DNA of 64,000 bases. It comes from Cyanobacteria bacterium P01_A01_bin.123. GTDB lineage: Bacteria; Cyanobacteriota; Cyanobacteriia; Phormidesmidales; Phormidesmidaceae. The first letter of the stretch is position 1. The number at the start of each line of letters is the position of its first letter. Positions 14,132 to 64,000 of the stretch are shown one piece after another. The stretch is from NCBI GenBank assembly GCA_039815185.1, contig JBCBZT010000012.1:64001-128000 (forward strand), given 5' to 3'. The position numbers were made by a program, and so were the translations under genes. Under the pieces are notes generated by a model, which was not told the origin of the DNA, made no database searches, and saw only the letters and a list, made by a program, of their open reading frames with translations.

Positions 14132-16513
14132 TTAATTCACTTTGGCAGCGAAGATTTCCTGACCGGCTTGGTAGAGGGTAAAGCCATTAACGGTTCCCTC
14201 TGTTGAGACATCAAACCTGATGGTGATGTTATCCATCTGAGCAAAGAATTCAGTCTCTGAGGTGGGATACAGGGTAAATGATTCCTGCCCTGTTGCCTGG
14301 GCGATCAACTGATCATCCTCAACCCTAATATCCACCTGCATTTGGGGCAATAGCTGGTAGGTACCGACATAGCGGTTATAAATCTCTGGATCAACCTCAA
14401 CGCTTTCAGGTGCTGCTGTGCTGACTGTTACCGTATCAATGTCCACCGTGAGCGCTTCTAGCTGCGCCTGCAATTCTGGAGACATCTCGGATTGATATCG
14501 CCCACCTAGGTGTTCAGCAAAAAAGCGTTCTAGGGCGGCAATCATCGCCAACCGATTTCCTTCTTTACGAAAACCGTGACCTTCATCGGGGGCGATCAAG
14601 TATTCGACTGGATAACCCAAATCTCGCATTGCAACCACAATTTGATCTGACTCAACTTGCTTGACGCGTGGATCGTTAGCCCCTTGAACCACCATTAAGG
14701 GAGCCTGAATTTGATCGGCAAAAAACAGGGGAGATTGAGCTTCTAATCGGGTGCGATCGCTAGGATCATCTGGATCACCTAGGCGCAGCGTAAAAGTTGC
14801 TCTGAGAGAAGCCCAGTAGGGCGGAATTGAATCGAGCAGCGTAATTAGGTTAGACGGGCCAACCACAGATGCTCCAGCCGCATAGAGATCAGGGGTGAAA
14901 GCTAATCCAGCTAACGTTGCATAACCCCCATAGGATCCCCCGAAGATGCCGACTCGCTCTGGATCGGCGATGCCCTGATCGATTAGATACTGCACGCCAT
15001 CAGTGATGTCATGCTGCATCGCGCCCGTGCCCCATTCGTGGTTGCCGGCGTTGAGAAAGGCTTTGCCGTAGCCCGTAGACCCCCGGAAATTAGGTTGGAT
15101 TACAGCGTAGCCTCGGTTTGCCAAGAACTGGGCAAAGGGGTTGTAGCCCCAAATATCCCGTGCCCAAGGTCCCCCGTGGGGCATGACAATGACGGGCAAA
15201 TTTTCTGGGGGCATGCCGGGGGGCAGCGTTAGATAGGCTGGAATTTCCAAGCCGTCGCGGGCGGTGTAGCGGATGGGCTGCATGGCCCCTAGCTCGTAAG
15301 CCCCTAGCTCGGGTCGAGAATCGTAAAGCTTCTCTACGGTTTGAGCGGTGCGATCGAATAAATACACTGAACCGGGATTGACGTCACTTTGAATCCCGAT
15401 TAAGGCCAGTTGATCATCACGGGTGACGGATTTGAGGGATATCTCATAGTTGGGAAATTGCTGGTTGAGAAACGCTAGATCGCTTGCCAGTTGCTCGGTT
15501 TTGGGATAAATGCGGACGCGATCGCCCACATAAGACGTCGCGATTAGCTCATCGGTAGCCTCAGAAAAAACGGCCCCACCAAAGTCTACCTGGTTGTCGG
15601 GATCCGTTTCTATAATCTGGCTTTGCCGGGTGTCCAGATTAAACAGCTCTAGCTGAATCAGGTTGACATCTCGATTGGTTGCGAGATACACCTGCTGGGG
15701 GTTTCGATGAAACCGGATGGGATAGCAGGTATCTTCAATCTCGCAGCTATACACTGGCGTTAACCTGCCATTTTCGACCGCTAGAATTTCGTTTCCCCCC
15801 GCTACGCTCTGGCGATAGGCAAGGCGCACATGACCCTCCAAATCAGTGACCCAAGAACCGATCCGCTGATCATTCTGAATAATCAGCGTCCGCTCACCCG
15901 TCGTCAGATCTAAGCGATAGACATCGTGGAATTGCGGGTCGCGATCGTTAAGACCAATGATGATCTGGTTTGGGGTTTGCTTAGGAACCGCGTAAATTTG
16001 CACCTGAACATTGTCTATAGGGGTCAGATTGCGGGTTCCACTGCCGTCTAGCGCCCCAGGTTCAGCAGCATAGATGTGAAAATTCTCGTCGCCCCCCTTA
16101 TCTTGAGCATAGAGAATGTAGCGACCATCGGCACTCCAAAAATAGACGATAATGGGGCTTTCTCCGTCGGCGGTGACGGGGCGGGCAGCGGCCATCGGTT
16201 CGTCTATGCCCTTCACCCAAACATTCATCACCCCGTCTAGCGGTTTTTGAAACGCCAAAAATTTGCCGTCTGGTGACAGTTGGGCTCCCGTAATCTCTGG
16301 ATCGGCAAAGAACAGCGCTCGATCGATTAGGGGGGGTTGGGTGCTAGAGGCTTCGTTGGCGATCGCGGCCGTTGTCGTTAACGGTTGGGGTGTATTGCTG
16401 AAGCCAACCCCCATCAAGCTCATAGACACGATGGCCAAACCTGCACTTAGTTGGAATCGCTTCATCACAAACAGTTTGCTCCAAGAATTTTTGATGTGAT
16501 GCAAATCTAACAA
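14132..16513 (-). CDS. S9 family (prolyl oligopeptidase/acylaminoacyl) peptidase with signal peptide and C-terminal DUF3471-like domain
   Basis: HGGPW, GGSYGG, GANDPRV, DEGHGF; probable start ~16465. Confidence 0.9.
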   Translation of the reverse strand: MLDLHHIKNSWSKLFVMKRFQLSAGLAIVSMSLMGVGFSNTPQPLTTTAAIANEASSTQPPLIDRALFFADPEITGAQLSPDGKFLAFQKPLDGVMNVWVKGIDEPMAAARPVTADGESPIIVYFWSADGRYILYAQDKGGDENFHIYAAEPGALDGSGTRNLTPIDNVQVQIYAVPKQTPNQIIIGLNDRDPQFHDVYRLDLTTGERTLIIQNDQRIGSWVTDLEGHVRLAYRQSVAGGNEILAVENGRLTPVYSCEIEDTCYPIRFHRNPQQVYLATNRDVNLIQLELFNLDTRQSQIIETDPDNQVDFGGAVFSEATDELIATSYVGDRVRIYPKTEQLASDLAFLNQQFPNYEISLKSVTRDDQLALIGIQSDVNPGSVYLFDRTAQTVEKLYDSRPELGAYELGAMQPIRYTARDGLEIPAYLTLPPGMPPENLPVIVMPHGGPWARDIWGYNPFAQFLANRGYAVIQPNFRGSTGYGKAFLNAGNHEWGTGAMQHDITDGVQYLIDQGIADPERVGIFGGSYGGYATLAGLAFTPDLYAAGASVVGPSNLITLLDSIPPYWASLRATFTLRLGDPDDPSDRTRLEAQSPLFFADQIQAPLMVVQGANDPRVKQVESDQIVVAMRDLGYPVEYLIAPDEGHGFRKEGNRLAMIAALERFFAEHLGGRYQSEMSPELQAQLEALTVDIDTVTVSTAAPESVEVDPEIYNRYVGTYQLLPQMQVDIRVEDDQLIAQATGQESFTLYPTSETEFFAQMDNITIRFDVSTEGTVNGFTLYQAGQEIFAAKVN

Positions 16514-56950: not shown

Positions 56951-57285
56951 ATCCTCATAGCTTCAAAGACGGGTGCGGGTAGGGATTCACATCACTACCC
57001 AGATATCTGCTGTGTGAAAGCTGTATCAAACAACGATTGATGCCAAAGCTAGCAAACTCCAGTAGGCATGTCCTAAGTTCAAGTTCATATCAGCGATCGC
57101 TGACATGAATCCCCAATCTACCTGACCAACCGGACACTTCTGATTGTCCAGTTGGTCAGCCCATGACAACCAGGCAGATGATGTAGCCGCTCTACCCCTA
57201 GCGTCATTGTTTAAGGGCGCAAGAGTTGAAATGTTTTGATCCTGCGCTTTGAGTCTCTGATAGAAAACCTGTAGGAAATCTGCTT

Positions 57286-58281
57286 ATGCCTGGGAAACTA
57301 TTCAAAAAAATTGGCTTAACAGCCCTCTTTGTAGGGCTTTCCACTGCTTTTGCCACTGCCAACGCAGCTCCAGATCCAGTCTTTGATTCAGTGATTGACG
57401 ACATTCGCAGTGAGTTACCTGAAGGTTGGCAATTTCGTTTACCTTCAGAGATGCCACTAGACAGCGAAATCTATCCTTTTGTGAGTGAAGCGAGCGACAC
57501 CAAGCTGGTCGTCAGTCTGGGCATCACGCCCGACTGTACTTCAGCAGACTGTACGATCGGGGTGATTGGTGCCGTGGATGCAGGCGCAAGCAGTTGGCCT
57601 CCTGAAGGCGAAAGCGTGACACCCGTTGATCTGGGCCAAGATGAGCTAGGCCAAGACTTAGAGGGCTATTACCTGCTGCAAGGGGAAGGTACTGCCACGA
57701 ATCAACTCGTCATGTGGCAGCAAGATGGGCTCCTGTATGGCATTGTGACCGTTGCAGATGCGCTACCCCAAGAGCAGCTTGTGGCAGTGGCCAGTTCAAT
57801 GGCGAGTGAACCCCCCATTGACGGTGACGCATCGATGACAGAGCCGCCTATTGACGGTGAGCCCCCTGTTACAGAACCGCCCATTGATGGTGAGCCCCCC
57901 GTCACAGAACCGCCGATTACAGAACCGCCGGTTGACAGCGTACCCCCTGTGACCGAACCGCCGATCACCGAACCCCCTGTTGACGGCGTCCCCCCTGTGA
58001 CCGAGCCACCCATTGATGGTGAACCCCCTGTCACAGAACCACCTATCGATGGTGAGCCGCCTGTGACCGAGCCACCCATTGATGGTGAGCCGCCTGTCAC
58101 TGAGCCCCCGATTACAGAGCCGCCCATTGATAGTGGTGTACCCCCTGTCACTGAGCCACCCATTGATGGTGAACCCCCTGTGACCGAGCCGCCCATTGAT
58201 AGCGAGCCGCCCGTGACGGAACCCCCGATTGACAGTGAACCGCCTGTAACCGAGCCCCCGATTGAAGATGAAGCACCCTAA
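57286..58281 (+). CDS. Secreted protein with Pro/acidic EPPIDGEPPVT repeat tail
   Basis: Signal peptide, globular domain, repeats from ~57808 to 58263. Confidence 0.8.
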   Translation: MPGKLFKKIGLTALFVGLSTAFATANAAPDPVFDSVIDDIRSELPEGWQFRLPSEMPLDSEIYPFVSEASDTKLVVSLGITPDCTSADCTIGVIGAVDAGASSWPPEGESVTPVDLGQDELGQDLEGYYLLQGEGTATNQLVMWQQDGLLYGIVTVADALPQEQLVAVASSMASEPPIDGDASMTEPPIDGEPPVTEPPIDGEPPVTEPPITEPPVDSVPPVTEPPITEPPVDGVPPVTEPPIDGEPPVTEPPIDGEPPVTEPPIDGEPPVTEPPITEPPIDSGVPPVTEPPIDGEPPVTEPPIDSEPPVTEPPIDSEPPVTEPPIEDEAP

Positions 58282-58313
58282 CGGATCCTCCCGTTAGCCC
58301 TTAAGCGCTTTCC

Positions 58314-58417
58314 ATAACGCTGGCCAGATTGCTTAAGACACCGAGTATCGCTGGGATGCTGAGTATACAAGCAATCTGGCTCGCCGTAGCGCCCAAAGCT
58401 TGGGGCGCTACGGCTAT
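58314..58417 (+). repeat. ~103-bp element, copy F
   Basis: Homologous to copy A, with compensatory changes in hairpin 2. Confidence 0.9.
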
Positions 58418-58513
58418 ACCATCCCGTCGCCTTTAGGAATTGCTTGGTTGTTATGGCATTCTCAACGCCCAGTAACATCCAGTCACTAGCGCCTAGCATG
58501 ACAGTCTCAGCAC

Positions 58514-59160
58514 CTATTCACCCACGTGCTTTTCTTCTGGAAAATAGCTTTTTAGATAATTGAAGGCGAGTCTCTGCGTTTCCTGCACGAGTCGTTGACG
58601 GAAATCAGGTGCTTGCCCCGAAGAAATCCAGAGTAAATTGCCCATTGCCTTGACGAGAACAAACGCGATCGCCTCGCAGTCTTCTGCACTTAAGACATCA
58701 TTCAGTTTAGAAAAAATCCTTACGAATGCCTGAACCAATTGATTATCCGTCGCTTCATTTATTTCAGGCATGCTGGTTGTGATTTCTACAAAAGTAGCGC
58801 GGTAGCCAGGATTTTCGCGAAAAAAGCCGTTGATTCCCTGGGTTAAGCGATTCACATACTCCGATAGGGGAAGTTGCATCATCGCTTCCGTCTCAAAAAC
58901 CTGCAACTGCTGGTTGAGTAAATCCGTATATTGCTCCGCCAAAGCCTGCAAAATCGCTGTCTTATCGGGAAAAACTGGTACAGCGTACCGATCGGTACCT
59001 CCGCTTCCGCTGCGATCTGTTTCGTGGTTGCAGCAGTATATCCCTGCTCAACAAATATTGCTGCCGCCATCTCCAAAATTCGATTAACCCGTTCTAAACT
59101 GCGGGCCTGCTTGGGCTTGCGCCATTTTCGCACGATCGTCTCTGAAGATTGTTCGGTCAT
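58514..59160 (-). pseudogene. TetR family regulator, frameshifted near 58967
   Basis: HTH (ATTKQIAAEAEVPIGTLYQFFP) shifts frame; adding one C restores FFPDKTAILQAL. Confidence 0.8.
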
Positions 59161-59175
59161 TTCGTCAATTCCTTC

Positions 59176-59227
59176 TTGACATAACATGAGCTTAACTCAT
59201 ATATTCAAAAACGTGAGCTTAACTCAT
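59176..59227. promoter_or_regulatory. Twin TetR-type operators overlapping a sigma70-like promoter
   Basis: (A/G)TGAGCTTAACTCAT at 59186-59200 and 59213-59227; TTGACA at 59176, TATATT at 59200. Confidence 0.7.
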
Positions 59228-59251
59228 ATCTTAATTTGAAGGAATATCGGA

Positions 59252-59620
59252 ATGCCACATTCTGGGCAGCTTCGCATCAATCTATTTGGTCATCTGCGAT
59301 TAACGTTTGAGAACCAGCCGATTGCTAGTTTGCGGACGGATCGGTATCAATCGCTGTTGGCCTATTTTGTCCTTCAGGCGCGATCGCCTCAACCCCGCTC
59401 TCAGCTGGCTGGCTTATTTTGGCCAGATATTCCTGAGGCCAAGACTAAAGCCAGCCTTAGACAAGAGCTATACCGGCTCAAAAAGATGCTGCCCCAGGCA
59501 GATCAATTTTTACAGGTAACCGCAAAGACCGTGCAGTGGTTACCACAGCTTCCCCCAAACTCGTCTCCCAGTCAGAGTGACACGTGCTCAAACGGGGCTA
59601 GCTCAGGGATGGGTATTTGA
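59252..59620 (+). pseudogene. Truncated SARP/AfsR-like (wHTH-BTAD) regulator N-terminus
   Basis: LRINLFG, SLLAYFVL, RSQLAGLFWPD, SLRQELYRLKK; ends before the BTAD domain. Confidence 0.7.
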
Positions 59621-59981
59621 TGAGGGTACCTCTCTACCTGTGCAGCTGCGAGTTCTAAACTTCTATGCCAACGGTGACATCACCTACGTAGCAAAAATCA
59701 ATGGTGTCGGGCTAAGAGAGGGAGATTTTGTTTCAAAAGGACAGCTCCTGGCTACGATTGACGACCGCAGACAAACCTCTAGCATCGAAACCGCAGAAGC
59801 TGATATTCAGGTGGCTATTAATCAGCGGGAGCAATCAGAAGCTTCGCTTTTACAGGCTCAAGCCAATTTAGATAAGACTGAATCTGATCTGGCCTTAGCA
59901 CAAACAGAACTCCAGCGTTATCAATCTCTGTTTGAACGAGGGGTAGTGGCAGAGAGCTATCGCGATGCTGGCGATAGCTAA
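59553..59981 (+). pseudogene. Internal fragment of an efflux periplasmic adaptor (MFP)
   Basis: LREGDFVSKGQLLATID, coiled coil, ELQRYQSLFERG; lacks the N-terminal anchor and the C-terminus. Confidence 0.75.
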
Positions 59982-60231
59982 TGTTACTTACAACCCTTTT
60001 GCAGTTGCTCTGGTAACAGAATTGGCTCCCAAACCTTCTCTTGGCATTTATCTATCTCTAAATGCTCAATGCTGGACAATTGGTTACTGACTTGGCCCGC
60101 TAGTAGGGGGGTGATCACTCGCTCAAAATGAAAAAATTGCTCATGGGCTTTGGGCTACTGTGTCTCTCAGTACGCTGGTTGGAGTGCTTATGCTAAGGCG
60201 ACTCACCAGGTTGCAAAGGACAACTGACTGA
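59956..60231 (+). pseudogene. C-terminal fragment of an MFS transporter with two premature stops
   Basis: AIAMLAIANVTYNPFAVALVTELAPKPSLGIYLSLNAQCWTIGY*LGPLVGG*... Confidence 0.7.
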
Positions 60232-60293
60232 TTACAATTCGGTTGCATCTAATCAAGCAAATTCCAACCACATATGTGTCGCTTGCTGAAGCG

Positions 60294-60379
60294 AGCTAAC
60301 GGTGCAGTTGTGCGGCGGCCAATACTTTTGCATTGATGCCTGAATTGTAAATTCCGTCCGCTCCTGCGTAGGGTTAGAC
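60294..60379 (-). mobile_element. Integron attC site
   Basis: Minus strand GTCTAAC-CCTACGCAGGAGCGGACGG...GGCCGCCGCACAACTGCACC-GTTAGCT; R''/R' boxes with imperfect inner inverted repeats. Confidence 0.75.
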
Positions 60380-60646
60380 GACAGGATCAAGCAGTTGTCC
60401 CATGTCTATCTCGGGGCCTATGTTAGCCTGAAATCGATTGCTTCAAGGAATTTATGAGAATGGTGCGGTCTTCAAAATTTAGTGGTGAGGCATTATGAAG
60501 TTACATCAGAGATCGCACCTTACAGCTAAGTTAGACACTTTGTCCTTTACATACGTTTCAACATAAAATTAGGTTCGCAAAAACCTATAATCCATGAGTC
60601 TTGTGCCTCAATCTGGTTTGTAAAGTGACTGGTTCTCACTCCTTTT

Positions 60647-62386
60647 CTAACTGATTGGTGAATAAGCTGTATCCAGGAGATCTAGTATAGTCTCAGCACT
60701 TCCCTGCCCAATCACCTGAATTTGTGGACCGTGAAGTGACTCTTTAAATATATCAATCTCTTCTTTGCTAGGGCATTCATGGGCCCCACCTAATTTCTGG
60801 CAAGCATATGCTGCCCAAGCTTGACTATCTTTCACAGCTCTTTGAAGATCGAAAAAAGAGAAGATTGACTCATGCTTGTCAAATAGATGTGATGCAATGG
60901 CTGCACCAAAAGCGTCCCCCGCACCTGTAGGATCTACAATTTTTCCTGGTTTATAAGGAAGTATTAAAATAAGCCCATCTGCACCATCTTTATAGCTACA
61001 GACTGCCCCTAATTTATCCATAGTAATTACACTTGTAACTCCTTTTTTGTTTAGAGAAGTTACAATCTCCTTCAAAGCAAGATCCTTCTTATCTACCTGG
61101 AATAAGCGCTTGACTTCATCTAGATTGAGCTGAAAAATAGAAATTTTTGGTAAAAACTCTTGCCAGAAGTCAAATCCATATTCGATTTGACTTCTGCCAA
61201 AATTAGCAAGGATATCAGCATTAGGGAATCTACTTATCAGTAGCTTTGTACATTTCCCTGAGCCTTCACTATCAGCATAAATATGCCCAATAATAACAGT
61301 CTTTATCCTCCTTTCAACTTCTTCCCCAAGGTCATCTAGGCGATTCGTAAGGTGGCGGAAAAAGTCTCCCTGCTCCACATTTTCGGTAAGAATAGTACGT
61401 TTCTCCCCTCTCACCAGAATCGTAGAGTAATTTGTTATTGCTCCAGGAATAAAAAAATTTTCAGAACCAACAAAATCATCAATTATTTTTGGCAATTTAC
61501 TCGTCCGTCTTATAGTGTTGAGAAGCTCTTCTTGAATACACTCTCCAAGACGATCCCGACCAACGCCAGGTATTGGGATTACTGGGATGCCAAAGTTCAT
61601 CAGGCGTATACTATAGTTAATACAGCTTCCACCAAAAAGTTTAATAGGATTAACGGTATATTTCCGATCTTCTTTGAACTCTAACGGTAGCTGAATTATA
61701 TTTTCACCATTGCTTCCACCAACAACAAGAACATAATTTTCCTGCTCACAAACATTTACTAGCTGGTTTTGTTTTCGGATAGGTAGCAATCTAGTCCAGT
61801 AGTCATCTTGCTGATGAGACTCTGTCTGAAGGTTTCGTAGTTCAGGGAGCTTCTCCAAAACCGCATAGGAAGGAAGAGCACCACCGCCTAAATCGCTAAA
61901 TTTATCACGAGTAAAATTAAGAATTCCGCATACTTTACCTGTTCGCTGATTCAACAAGGCAGCCCCGCTCATCCCTTTGCTCACCTGTCCCTGAGCAAAC
62001 TTGATGAATGCTGGTTTATCTCCCGTTAACCCCTCACACGTAAACGTCACTGGGCAACCGTTGGGAAAATTATCAGGATAGCCAAATATATATAGTGGGT
62101 CGCGGGTTTGAACTTCTTCACCCAAATACACACAGGACGGATTGACATTGGTTGGAAGCGTTACCCTAAGTAGAGCCAGATCCCAAGGATCAGGTAAAAG
62201 CTGCTCTACAATAGCTTCTACGTCGCTCTCTTGGTTTTGCAACCGTATTTGAACAAATTTCTCGTTCTGTACGACATGAGCACAAGTAAGAATATATTCA
62301 CGGGCCACAAAGAAACCTGTACCCCTTCCACAGGGACTTATGAGCTTTACCGTGCATAGCTTCAGCAGTTCTTCTAGGCGACTCAT
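60647..62386 (-). CDS. Trypsin-like serine protease fused to a PfkB/ribokinase-family kinase
   Basis: GTGFFV, TCAHVV (His), DLALL (Asp), GMSGA (Ser); then GGS..N, GVGRDRLG, LNLDE, ITMDKLG, DPTGAGDAF. Confidence 0.85.
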   Translation of the reverse strand: MSRLEELLKLCTVKLISPCGRGTGFFVAREYILTCAHVVQNEKFVQIRLQNQESDVEAIVEQLLPDPWDLALLRVTLPTNVNPSCVYLGEEVQTRDPLYIFGYPDNFPNGCPVTFTCEGLTGDKPAFIKFAQGQVSKGMSGAALLNQRTGKVCGILNFTRDKFSDLGGGALPSYAVLEKLPELRNLQTESHQQDDYWTRLLPIRKQNQLVNVCEQENYVLVVGGSNGENIIQLPLEFKEDRKYTVNPIKLFGGSCINYSIRLMNFGIPVIPIPGVGRDRLGECIQEELLNTIRRTSKLPKIIDDFVGSENFFIPGAITNYSTILVRGEKRTILTENVEQGDFFRHLTNRLDDLGEEVERRIKTVIIGHIYADSEGSGKCTKLLISRFPNADILANFGRSQIEYGFDFWQEFLPKISIFQLNLDEVKRLFQVDKKDLALKEIVTSLNKKGVTSVITMDKLGAVCSYKDGADGLILILPYKPGKIVDPTGAGDAFGAAIASHLFDKHESIFSFFDLQRAVKDSQAWAAYACQKLGGAHECPSKEEIDIFKESLHGPQIQVIGQGSAETILDLLDTAYSPIS

Positions 62387-62389
62387 AAA

Positions 62390-62716
62390 TTATTCCCCTT
62401 GCTGTACTTCCCACTCTAAAGTGATTTCCAGATTAGCTTTGCTGGAACCTTTCACTATTACTGCAGTCAGTTGTCCAGACTCGATTGACAGTTCCATACC
62501 AAATTTTACGCTAGCTTTCTTAGGCTTTACCTTTTGAATCGGGGTGGCAATCATCTGTACCAAGCCCTCAATCGCATCTGCAACAGGCTGAAACTGCTTT
62601 TTATCAAAGCTCGCGCTGGCTTTCTCTAGTCCCGTTTGTGCTACCTCAAATTTGACAGTAGCCCCATTTGGCAGCTGAATTGGAATAGTATTACTGTAAG
62701 GATTAGTAAAGGTCAT
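62390..62716 (-). CDS. Trypco1 (trypsin-co-occurring domain 1, CU044_2847-like) protein
   Basis: KP.KASVKFGMELSIESGQLTAVIVKGSSKANLEITLEW; 3 bp upstream of the trypsin gene. Confidence 0.8.
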   Translation of the reverse strand: MTFTNPYSNTIPIQLPNGATVKFEVAQTGLEKASASFDKKQFQPVADAIEGLVQMIATPIQKVKPKKASVKFGMELSIESGQLTAVIVKGSSKANLEITLEWEVQQGE

Positions 62717-62879
62717 ATTTGTAGATACCTAAGAAGATTAGATTACTATCTTAAAATATCCAGCAGTATTGGCTCCGATTGCGTTCAATGTATACATTGA
62801 TTTCGGCTTGGTAATCTAAATAATAGCAGCGTGCATCAGAGATTTGAGTCCAGTGCCTCATCGAGGTAAGAATGGGCCT

Positions 62880-62998
62880 AGTTAACTATCAATTAGAGAG
62901 AACCATTCCATATAACTCCCTTAAATGGGTGTTTAAGTAGAAACTTTTCAGCCTAATTCCCTGATTTGGGCGTTTAGGTGGAAATACGTCAGCCTAAT
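62880..62998 (-). mobile_element. Putative attI region with two direct repeats
   Basis: Minus strand CTCTAAT-TGATA-GTTAACT has the same geometry as attI1 CCCTAAA-ACAAA-GTT; 32-bp imperfect direct repeats at 62926-62957 and 62967-62998. Confidence 0.5.
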
Positions 62999-63006
62999 AC
63001 TCTTAT

Positions 63007-63210
63007 ATGGCTGTGCACCTAGCCAGCATCAATAAACGAGTCGGTTGTCATACGTTTCGCCATAGCTTTGCGACCCACCTTCTAGAAAATGGCTATGACA
63101 TCCGCACGATTCAAGAACTGCTGGGCCACAAAGATGTCAAGACAACAATGATTTGTACCCACGTTTTGAATCGTGGTGGTCGTGGCGTCAGGAGTCCCTT
63201 GGATGGCTAA
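63007..63210 (+). pseudogene. intI: Integron integrase remnant (C-terminal ~65 aa only; catalytic Tyr->Cys)
   Basis: [57 protein letters not shown]. Confidence 0.88.
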
Positions 63211-63230
63211 GCGGGAGTGCGAAAAACCTA

Positions 63231-64000
63231 CTATTCATTCTCCTGCTTCCACTCTGTCAACACCCCATACAATCCCCAAATCGCCATCGGTCGTAAATAA
63301 TGACACGCCCGAAACGTGCCCACCGCTGTGATCGCCTCTGGTGTGCGAAACTGCAACCCATACTCATAAATCTGCCGCACCACCGCCTTACTAATAGTCA
63401 ACGCCTCCTTAACCATGCCCGTATGGGCCATAAACGCAGCCAGACCAAAGTTAATCCCCGTCCACACTTCTAGCTGATGAGTATCGTCAAAATGCTCCGG
63501 TACGCCGTCTGGCAAAATGCCATTGGCCGCACCCACCGCCATGCCCAAACTAGCAGTGCTAAAATTCCCCGTTTGCGTCCCTTCAAATCGCTGGTTTTGC
63601 ACCACCGAATGGGTCTGCACATATTGATTGAACTTGACAAAACAGGCGTCGTAAATCGTTTCTAGTGCCGATTGGATATACTCTGGTTCTACCAAATCCG
63701 GCAGGCCCATCAACTGCGCCATGAACTGGCCGCAAAGTTGATCCGCCATCACTACTTCAGAGCCGCTGTGGGTATCCAGACGGTAGTAGCGACCGTTCCA
63801 CAGTTTGTTTTGATAGACAACTTGCCCATGCTTCAACCAGCGGCGATATTGGGTCAGTAAAATCGGCAGATTGCCGGGGGCACGCTGATGTTGGGTGAGG
63901 ACATCTGCGATCGCGATCGCAGCTTCCAACGCCGCCAACCATAACCCACCACAATAGGCACTGACGCCCTTAAGCTGCCAGTCATCAAAGGTTTGATCCG
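63231..64000 (-). CDS. GH116 (GBA2-type glucosylceramidase/beta-glucosidase), 5' part outside the window
   Basis: Frame open to the window edge: DQTFDDWQLKGVSAYCGGLWLAAL, MADQLCGQ, EVWTG, GLQFRTPEA, YLRPMAIW. Confidence 0.9.
   Translation of the reverse strand, partial: DQTFDDWQLKGVSAYCGGLWLAALEAAIAIADVLTQHQRAPGNLPILLTQYRRWLKHGQVVYQNKLWNGRYYRLDTHSGSEVVMADQLCGQFMAQLMGLPDLVEPEYIQSALETIYDACFVKFNQYVQTHSVVQNQRFEGTQTGNFSTASLGMAVGAANGILPDGVPEHFDDTHQLEVWTGINFGLAAFMAHTGMVKEALTISKAVVRQIYEYGLQFRTPEAITAVGTFRACHYLRPMAIWGLYGVLTEWKQENE

Follow-up and report, generated by a model that had tools for sequence, protein, structure and literature searches.

A Trypco1 gene and a trypsin–PfkB fusion in a decayed cyanobacterial integron: a candidate conflict module with a ribokinase-like, possibly regulatory domain

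Protease-activated pores of the Pepco/Trypco type have only recently been shown to be immune effectors, and the activating inputs are known for few sensor types. According to the text of a preprint (bioRxiv 10.1101/2025.11.14.688446), Pepco proteins (Trypco1/Trypco2) form beta-barrels and are pore-forming pro-toxins, which become toxic when a partner protease trims the C-terminal tail after a conserved Ile; the cleavage site was mapped to I97/R98. As described there, the proteases carry a variety of fused sensors, such as Avs4/STAND, FGE, and peptidoglycan-binding domains, and a nuclease effector can replace the Pepco–protease pair on the same sensor. The naming of Trypco1 goes back to Kaur et al. 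2020 (PMC7159879), whose text ties such systems to multicellular bacteria. In addition, anti-phage systems encoded by integron cassettes are reported in the text of two preprints (10.1101/2024.07.02.601686 and 10.1101/2024.07.02.601719). Here, a two-gene cassette was analyzed in a 64-kb stretch of DNA from a cyanobacterium (the window, that is, the whole 64,000-nucleotide (nt) stretch, in whose numbering positions are given). It carries a Trypco1 gene followed by a gene for a trypsin-like protease fused to a ribokinase/PfkB-like domain. The Trypco1/Pepco–protease module is already known, and the new feature is the PfkB-like module attached to it.

The Trypco1 gene (62390..62716, minus strand, 108 amino acids (aa)) was identified by open reading frame (ORF) call and Pfam, as was the trypsin–PfkB gene (60647..62386, minus strand, 579 aa). 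The Trypco1 gene lies 5' of the 579-aa gene on the same strand with a spacing of 3 bp, and an AAGGGG Shine–Dalgarno-like motif was found 9 nt upstream of the ATG of the latter. The ORFs, Pfam matches, motifs, and structure model agreed on this arrangement. The original prediction had proposed a Trypco1–trypsin conflict-type pair with a PfkB-family domain in the variable slot, and this was borne out by the Pfam matches, the catalytic triad, and the fold. The pair is a member of the Trypco1/Pepco–protease class, since it has, like the modules described in the preprint text, a small Trypco1 gene just upstream of a triad-intact protease with a variable C-terminus. It was different from those modules in that the C-terminal module is ribokinase/PfkB-like, with no STAND NTPase and no repeat sensor, and in that the protein is short at 579 aa.

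Compared with the ternary systems in the text of Kaur et al. 2020 (vWA-MoxR-VMAP, iSTAND, and GAP1-GTPase), the window shares the Trypco1–trypsin pair; the host cyanobacterium holds several such pairs, and the EAD7 adaptor is fused to the same PfkB-like module elsewhere. However, the cassette has no vWA, MoxR, STAND, or GTPase, and its sole nucleotide-binding part is a small-molecule kinase fold. The pair is not a member of the ternary/STAND systems, because there is no core NTPase among the two cassette genes. The main text of PMC7159879 contains neither "PfkB" nor "ribokinase", and that of 10.1101/2025.11.14.688446, whose supplements may list such architectures, contains neither "kinase" nor "PfkB". 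Likewise, an immune role of PfkB/ribokinase domains is unmentioned in the survey of TIR systems and in the DUF4062/NIR preprints, with the same proviso for bioRxiv supplements, and full-text literature on PfkB/ribokinase with TIR, anti-phage, or defence islands yielded only unrelated pfkB-named genes or phage sugar kinases. PADLOC-DB v2.0.0 gave six matches, all in protease residues 4–158 (LmuA, RT-Protease_XI, Avs1b, HamA, and PDC-M35A). The suggestion that the architecture is uncharacterized therefore held for the literature and the PADLOC-DB models examined.

The 108-aa protein matched Trypco1 (PF19493) over residues 13–103 with an E-value of 7.3e-18 and 65.4 bits against a Pfam cut-off of 24.6, and it also matched the NCBIfam CU044_2847 family (E 6.2e-19). 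Its C-terminal end reads ...KANLEITLEWEVQQGE. Ile98, within NLEITLEW, is kept in at least 90% of 30 aligned Trypco1 sequences; the charged tail behind it is short and variable, 0–16 aa long across these sequences and 10 aa in the window. A conserved Ile near the C-terminus is also a property of the Pepco in the preprint text, when the two proteins are set side by side by description. The trypsin-like protease domain of the 579-aa protein (residues 1–201; 61784..62386, minus strand) was delimited by the Trypsin_2 match (residues 22–155, E 4.4e-16), the triad, and the structure model. The motifs TCAH, DLALL, and GMSG start at residues 34, 69, and 138, respectively, and the triad His37/Asp69/Ser140 was invariant in 26 aligned protease domains. 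As the original prediction stated, no hydrophobic N-terminal signal peptide was visible when the sequence of the 579-aa protein was read by eye. The protease half (residues 1 to about 201) showed 55–68% identity to the protease domains of cyanobacterial proteins, whose C-termini are NACHT, NB-ARC, TPR, HEAT, WD40, CHASE2, TIR, FGE-sulfatase, and signal-peptidase domains.

The full-length model of the 579-aa protein had a predicted local distance difference test score (pLDDT) of 88.9 and a predicted TM-score (pTM) of 0.67, and showed two domains modelled with confidence, between which lies a disordered linker, PIRKQNQLVNVCE (residues 202–214; 61745..61783, minus strand), where the pLDDT was below 50. 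The evolutionary junction falls at this linker: the protease-side relatives align from residue 1 to about 201, and the kinase-side relatives from about 214. Judging from these alignments, the 579-aa protein is a chimera of two halves. The LLPIR motif in the linker was common to both trypsin–PfkB proteins found, and was absent as a conserved motif in the other 24 aligned protease fusions.

The ribokinase/PfkB-like domain (residues 215–579 plus the stop codon; 60647..61744, minus strand) was defined by Pfam, alignment, AlphaFold2, and Foldseek. The PfkB match in Pfam covered residues 406–536 (E 1.3e-14) and only positions 175–297 of the 302 of the profile. The AlphaFold2 model of residues 210–579, based on a 25-sequence alignment, had a pLDDT of 92.7. 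Its best Foldseek match was E. coli ribokinase (1rka, E 6.8e-18); TM-scores normalized to the target were 0.71–0.85, with 0.85 for pseudouridine kinase 7vva. Because the model matches whole ribokinases and pseudouridine kinase, the whole C-terminal segment of about 365 residues is, in the model, one complete ribokinase-like domain, an alpha/beta fold with a beta lid, that extends beyond the part covered by Pfam. The motifs GSNGE (N226 and E228), GGSCIN (G252, G253, and N257), an NxxE-type motif, and DPTGAGDAF from residue 485 (D491) were present, and the GG..N pocket, the Glu, the NxxE-type motif, and DxTGAGD were invariant in the 25 aligned modules. The Glu of the module aligns with what we take to be Asp16 in the numbering of the 1RKD literature, and the catalytic and sugar-contact residues are presumed to have the roles assigned to their counterparts in ribokinase. 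Compared with RbsK (PDB 1RKD/1RKA) and PsuK (7VVA), the whole fold is alike (Foldseek E 1e-16 to 7e-18) and the GG...N sugar-pocket, NxxE-type, and DxTGAGD motifs are shared. By contrast, the identity is 16–21%, and the domain of the window is about 60 residues longer, with a conserved C-terminal helical extension; the part of this extension that is specific to the family amounts to about 45 aa. Furthermore, unlike RbsK and PsuK, kinase domains of the window type are fused to immune-type domains.

The search with the 579-aa protein covered its own length class only, and larger trypsin–PfkB forms may exist. Among the best 120 of 197 matches, the trypsin–PfkB architecture was present in two proteins, that of the window and cluster P0002, which has 579 aa and 83% identity and keeps both halves and all motifs. 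Among 150 of the 2348 kinase-side matches, the cluster of the query was the only one to span both halves. P0002 comes from a 2665-nt contig, and a Trypco1 protein 88% identical to that of the window likewise comes from a 2665-nt contig; the sequences thus suggest that the pair is probably conserved in the source of P0002. A protein-cluster search with the kinase part returned generic PfkB clusters only. Among 80 loci listed in a genome-contig search with the pattern D[TPS]TGAGDAF, the true members of the clade of the module were L001 and L002 only. The own genome has a single copy of the module.

The relatives of the kinase half (residues about 214–578) carry a variety of N-terminal partners. 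A PNP_UDP_1–PfkB protein was about 72% identical, and many others were at 35–50%. When 49 kinase-side homologues with an extra N-terminus were scanned with Pfam (about 18 without such an extension being excluded), the partners were TIR in 17, PNP_UDP_1 in two, EAD7 in two, CHAT in one, and DUF4062, which is described as a TIR-like NADase in abstracts from the literature, in one. The remaining 26 proteins showed PfkB alone and an unassigned N-terminal extension. Most of these extensions are one shared region of about 75 aa that looks helical and contains the motif IPY[IV]G. For 67 modules, a tree was computed by a quick maximum-likelihood search, with SH-aLRT (Shimodaira–Hasegawa-like approximate likelihood-ratio test) as its only branch support. 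In this tree the two trypsin fusions nest within the PNP fusions (SH-aLRT 100 and 95), and the CHAT fusion is sister to the EAD7 fusions (SH-aLRT 100). The TIR, standalone, and extension forms were scattered, and the well-supported branches force at least six TIR state changes.

Swappable N-terminal effectors are a familiar feature of single-chain immune proteins, for instance TIR-SAVED, TIR-STING, and Avs proteins with protease, nuclease, or TIR heads. The PfkB-like module resembles these effector–sensor proteins in its constant C-terminal position, its alternative TIR, NADase-like, nucleosidase, and protease heads, and its sporadic distribution. It differs from them in that the constant part has a kinase fold with the catalytic residues retained, rather than being a known cyclic-nucleotide receptor or a STAND ATPase, and in that the cassette has no partner gene producing a signal. 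On the strength of the interchangeable N-terminal effectors and of the nesting of the trypsin form in the PNP clade, the PfkB-like module looks like the constant regulatory part. The alternative raised in the original prediction, that the PfkB domain senses a metabolite and activates the protease, agrees with this fusion pattern.

Combining the mechanism of the preprint with the swapping of effectors on the module leads to a reading of the cassette as a two-gene conflict module of the abortive-infection type. Trypco1 would be a latent membrane-pore pro-toxin, and the N-terminal trypsin-like domain would be the activating protease, cutting Trypco1 probably near Ile98; these two parts would together act as the killing unit. 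As the input or regulatory module, the C-terminal ribokinase-like domain would bind ATP together with a ligand of the ribose or sugar type and would probably phosphorylate this ligand. The state of the ligand, for example through lid closure or the dimerization typical of the ribokinase fold, would license the protease. We consider this account, with Trypco1 and the protease as killers and the ribokinase-like domain as a constant switch that reads a ligand, to fall a little short of probable. Pore formation and cleavage of the window Trypco1 are carried over by analogy from the preprint on a different Pepco, and the role of the kinase-like domain as a sensor or switch, the identity of the ligand, and phage infection as the trigger are inferred. 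The decayed-integron locus, together with a sister locus on contig C70 of the same genome that has two TIR genes, provides supporting context. So do the sporadic occurrence of the module and the defence-type genes close to some fused homologues, which are PLD and NACHT genes at locus L001 and an Eco57I/MmeI-like methylase and a transposase at locus L103.

The roles first given to the parts need to be re-ordered, and a conflict system remains a plausible frame for them. The idea that Trypco1 gates the protease runs against the experimental work found, since in the text of 10.1101/2025.11.14.688446 Pepco is the substrate of the protease and the pore-forming effector. By analogy, the Trypco1 of the window is probably the substrate of the protease and not its gate.

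Several observations weigh against the reading of a ligand-gated killing unit. The Pepco of the preprint is an S. subrutilus protein that is likened to the PF19493 Trypco1 by description, and its tail after the Ile is about 20 residues in the preprint text compared with 10 in the window. Neither Trypco1 nor the kinase part was matched by a PADLOC-DB v2.0.0 model. In the text of PMC7159879, domains linked to EAD7 are taken to be recruited effectors, which would make the PfkB-like domain an effector. The invariance of the catalytic residues in the alignment is at least as much in keeping with an enzyme as with a pure sensor. Moreover, a standalone lineage of the module (31–35% identity) lies directly behind glmS-like (GATase-SIS), pyrG, glmM-like, and sometimes NagB/6PGL-like genes. 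This setting was found at 26 of 35 metagenome loci and in two genomes, but the loci are close kin (PyrG 83–96% identical), two of the five seeds came from that lineage, and the counts stand for one lineage. Its neighbourhood suggests that the standalone lineage is probably a metabolic sugar kinase, and the chemistry of the clade may by the same token be that of a genuine sugar or aminosugar kinase. Homologues in sugar-metabolism operons, which the original prediction had named as a finding that would speak against it, thus do occur in this distant lineage and do not among the closest relatives. Finally, the integron is dead and the neighbouring DNA fragmentary, so the cassette could be a relic.

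A more general reading is that the ribokinase-like module represents an unrecognized class of small-molecule-gated immune switch, which drives TIR, DUF4062/NIR, PNP, CHAT, EAD7, and Trypco1–protease effectors. The kinase fold would then have been recruited from an aminosugar or riboside pathway and would read, and perhaps phosphorylate, a sugar or nucleoside linked to infection, with integron cassettes as one vehicle. We put forward this generalization, including the origin of the fold, only tentatively, as a possibility that is doubtful at present. If true, a sugar or nucleoside, read by a metabolic kinase fold that takes the place of the sensor, would be a new kind of input next to the few described. 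The presence of the same fold on TIR, NADase-like, nucleosidase, and caspase-like heads supports such an input. Of broader interest as a lead is that the PfkB-like module recurs as a partner of immune effectors.

The strongest alternative is that the kinase is a co-effector. The activated protease would cut the linker or otherwise free a ribokinase-like enzyme, which would deplete ATP or phosphorylate a ribose-bearing metabolite, such as a nucleoside or the product of an NAD/ATP N-glycosidase; Trypco1 would act alongside as a second effector or an adaptor. The invariance of the catalytic Asp, the anion-hole GAGD, the NxxE-type motif, and the sugar-contact positions in the 25 sequences is what such an enzyme would show. 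Furthermore, the TIR, DUF4062, and PNP_UDP partners (20 of the 49) cleave N-glycosidic bonds of nucleotides, and a ribose kinase could use their products. EAD7 fusions also exist, and the EAD7 class is read as effector-recruiting in the text of PMC7159879. The disordered linker at 202–214 contains an Ile–Arg, like the I97/R98 site in the preprint text. However, of the protease fusions aligned, only the two trypsin–PfkB proteins have LLPIR, and the other 24 do not conserve it. In addition, the TIR–PfkB and PNP–PfkB proteins would on this account hold two effectors and no sensor, and a swap from PNP to trypsin (with Trypco1) on a kinase module of about 72% identity is easier to understand if the N-terminal parts are equivalent killing units. 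The release of a kinase effector by self-cleavage, as first suggested, is therefore possible with the linker at hand, but less parsimonious given the interchangeable effectors and the nesting in the PNP clade. We regard the co-effector role as rather unlikely.

It was also considered that an aminosugar, cell-wall, or nutrient metabolite is what the ribokinase-like domain reports, and that Trypco1 and the protease serve regulated death or differentiation in a filamentous cyanobacterium, either as kin-level programmed cell death (Kaur et al. 2020) or as a stress response, with no part for phage. The gene cluster of the standalone relatives (glmS-like, pyrG, glmM-like, and nagB-like) points to substrates of the aminosugar type, and the own genome has five Trypco1 genes. 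The link of these systems to multicellular bacteria in the text of PMC7159879, and the peptidoglycan-binding sensors on Pepco proteases in that of 10.1101/2025.11.14.688446, would fit such a function as well. On the other hand, the PfkB-like module was found in just two of 401 cyanobacterial genomes, the own genome (G000) included, and in a second phylum, that of locus L002, in two of 401 genomes, the centre genome (G401) included. Together with the cassette position and the foreign-looking base composition, this occurrence suggests an accessory, horizontally moved gene rather than core physiology. A purely physiological regulator is accordingly held to be a distinctly unlikely explanation.

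The position of the operon in an integron was examined in the window and in the rest of the genome. The putative cassette (60378..62882, minus strand, about 2.5 kb) comprises a 166-nt leader, the Trypco1 gene, the trypsin–PfkB gene, and a 270-nt tail. It is bordered by an attI-like element of 131 nt with two 41-nt direct repeats (62883..63013), which was recognized from six other genomic copies and adjoining intI remnants, and by an attC-like site 3' of the 579-aa gene (60294..60382), which was recognized from its homology to two other genomic sites. Next to the attI-like element lies an intI remnant consisting of about the last 66 codons (63010..63207, plus strand; TIGR02249 and the Phage_integrase C-terminus). 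The corresponding 67-aa ORF at 63007–63210 matched TIGR02249 at positions 249–313 of 315 (E 2e-34), and the remnant was 86% identical to residues 256–321 of an intact IntI on contig C36 of the same genome (476 bits). The position of the catalytic Tyr is a Cys in the remnant (MICTHV versus MIYTHV in the intact IntI), and the reading frame 5' of the remnant holds many stop codons.

Seven copies of the attI-like element were found in the genome (the window and contigs C70, C24, C5, C26, C121, and C111). In six of the seven, the similarity starts at a (C)TAAC core on the cassette side, and the flanks beyond it differ: the core is CTAAC in C70, C5, C26, and C111 and TAAC in C24 and the window, and there is none in C121. 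The copies in C70 and C5 have intI remnants on the same side, the copy of the window has the intI 3' end beside it, and motifs resembling the element were found 5' of the intact intI on C36. The 131-nt sequence is thus read as a putative attI region. Its interpretation as an IS200/IS605-type end or a miniature inverted-repeat transposable element was ruled out by the intI remnants beside three copies and by the CTAAC boundary. In total, the genome has one intact integron integrase, on a 3.4-kb contig (C36:1-1659), and at least six further attI-like elements, at C70:62359-65870, C5:23450-23793, C24:4011-4142 and 15564-16023, C26:108997-109128, C111:15041-15159, and C121:259-372. Several of these loci carry intI remnants and then runs of ORFs on the same strand, which are TIR genes in C70 and, as judged by eye, toxin–antitoxin-like pairs and small enzymes in C24. 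The sister locus on C70 is ordered as intI remnant, attI, a 431-aa ORF, attC, and two TIR genes; the 431-aa ORF has no Pfam match, and a BrnT/BrnA pair lies on the integrase side.

The attC-like site of the window is 77% identical to C70 64132-64212, which folds as a canonical attC hairpin (GCCTAAC...GTTAGGC), and its R/L boxes are homologous to those of the two other genomic sites. The copy in the window has two mismatches in R'' and a non-canonical minimum-energy fold, and its left half has a homologue in the 3' flank of a major facilitator superfamily (MFS) gene on C95; for these reasons it is called attC-like rather than attC. When 57000–64000 was scanned strictly for canonical attC sites (RYYYAAC...GTTRRRY, at least 6/7 complementary, ends paired), there were none. 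A profile of the three attC-like sites, used with nhmmer, matched those three alone strongly and gave otherwise weak hits. Metagenome contigs from other places end at 62883 and at 60377/60385, as is expected of the borders of recombination sites. Contigs of one run from a second study span the operon and both borders of the cassette with few differences. In addition, one contig of run X1 joins 60376 to 62974 and omits 2597 nt, the whole cassette, with 24 letters on the shorter side; it may be the cassette-less form or come from another locus or organism, and is too weak to use.

The composition of the segment was also different from its surroundings. The G+C content of the cassette was 41.3% compared with 50.4% for the window, and HIP1 (GCGATCGC), of which there are 94 sites in the 64-kb window, was absent from 59387–63907, the largest gap at 4.5 kb. 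The AT-rich segment without HIP1 described in the original prediction was thereby recovered. By a Poisson estimate over all gaps of the window, such a gap has a value of about 0.12, and the HIP1 gap at the cassette is by itself only suggestive. Neither a minus-strand promoter in the leader nor a terminator 3' of the operon rose above background in a promoter/terminator scan.

The integron context was largely confirmed. The attI-like element, the intI 3' end, and the attC homology support the cassette position that had been proposed, whereas the integrase is a remnant only and the attC is non-canonical. The locus shares with the integron defence cassettes in the text of 10.1101/2024.07.02.601686 and 10.1101/2024.07.02.601719 a compact candidate defence unit between attI and an attC-like site beside intI. 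It was different from the cassettes described there in its 66-codon integrase remnant, its degenerate attC, its two genes in 2.5 kb, and its host, a cyanobacterium with several decayed platforms. The locus shows that decayed integrons are kept in cyanobacterial chromosomes, with defence-like genes as their first cassettes.

The decay of the integron bears on a further explanation, namely that a chance recombination of a PNP–PfkB gene with a Trypco1–trypsin system produced a non-functional chimera, which was trapped in the integron and has no selected function. An intI reduced to 66 codons with its Tyr changed to Cys, the degenerate R'' of the attC, the patchwork of gene fragments in the DNA to the left, and the extreme rarity of the architecture (two of 120 listed proteins) would all be consistent with this. 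However, neither ORF is interrupted, all catalytic motifs are intact, a second instance (83% and 88% identity for the two proteins) retains both genes and all motifs, and the contigs from the second study carry the operon over both borders with few differences. A functionless chimera is thus judged to be quite improbable. The PNP–PfkB relatives could be plain nucleoside-salvage enzymes, but the TIR, CHAT, and EAD7 fusions in the same clade are not easily reconciled with this.

The aminosugar cluster of the standalone kinases was found at L002, L101, and L105–L135, in Syntrophus-type genomes and metagenomes, and consists of a 1250-aa GATase-SIS protein, PyrG, a PGM/PMM-family mutase, and sometimes a NagB/6PGL-like protein; it may represent an undescribed aminosugar or nucleotide-sugar pathway. 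The only other cyanobacterial module found among 400 genomes, L090 (G202:C95, 5548-7058), is a standalone form of 363 aa. Its gene begins 3 bp after a 138-aa ORF with a C-terminal transmembrane helix and no Pfam match, and the pair sits between secA and a TPS-domain gene. The domain with the IPY[IV]G motif, which has no Pfam match, precedes the module in P0131, P0142, P0167, P0171, P0198, P0228, and others, and may be an EAD-type adaptor. A word-index search that detects near-identical sequences only, run with the domain of about 72 aa from P0131, matched just P0131 and one 94%-identical protein.

To the left of the attC-like site, the region 59252–60295, which reaches from the last HIP1 site to that site, is a patchwork of gene fragments. 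Its parts are a SARP-like N-terminal piece, an HlyD/RND-adaptor fragment (RND, resistance-nodulation-division) with about 72% identity to two places on C49, and the 3' end of an MFS transporter gene, which shares 92% identity with C95; on that contig the gene is complete, and an attC-like hairpin likewise comes after it. Further on lies a TetR-family gene (58514–59187, minus strand) that appears to be split into two overlapping frames, one with the helix-turn-helix part and the other with the TetR_C_15 part. Contigs of runs X3 and X4 contain an additional G after 58966, and the split of the gene is thus a strain-level frameshift or an assembly error. Beyond it, a 331-aa protein is encoded at 57286–58281 (plus strand) in a region of 59–61% G+C; its only Pfam match, Extensin_1, is under the cut-off, and the protein is hydrophobic at its N-terminus and contains some 14 proline-rich repeats (EPPVTEPPIDG).

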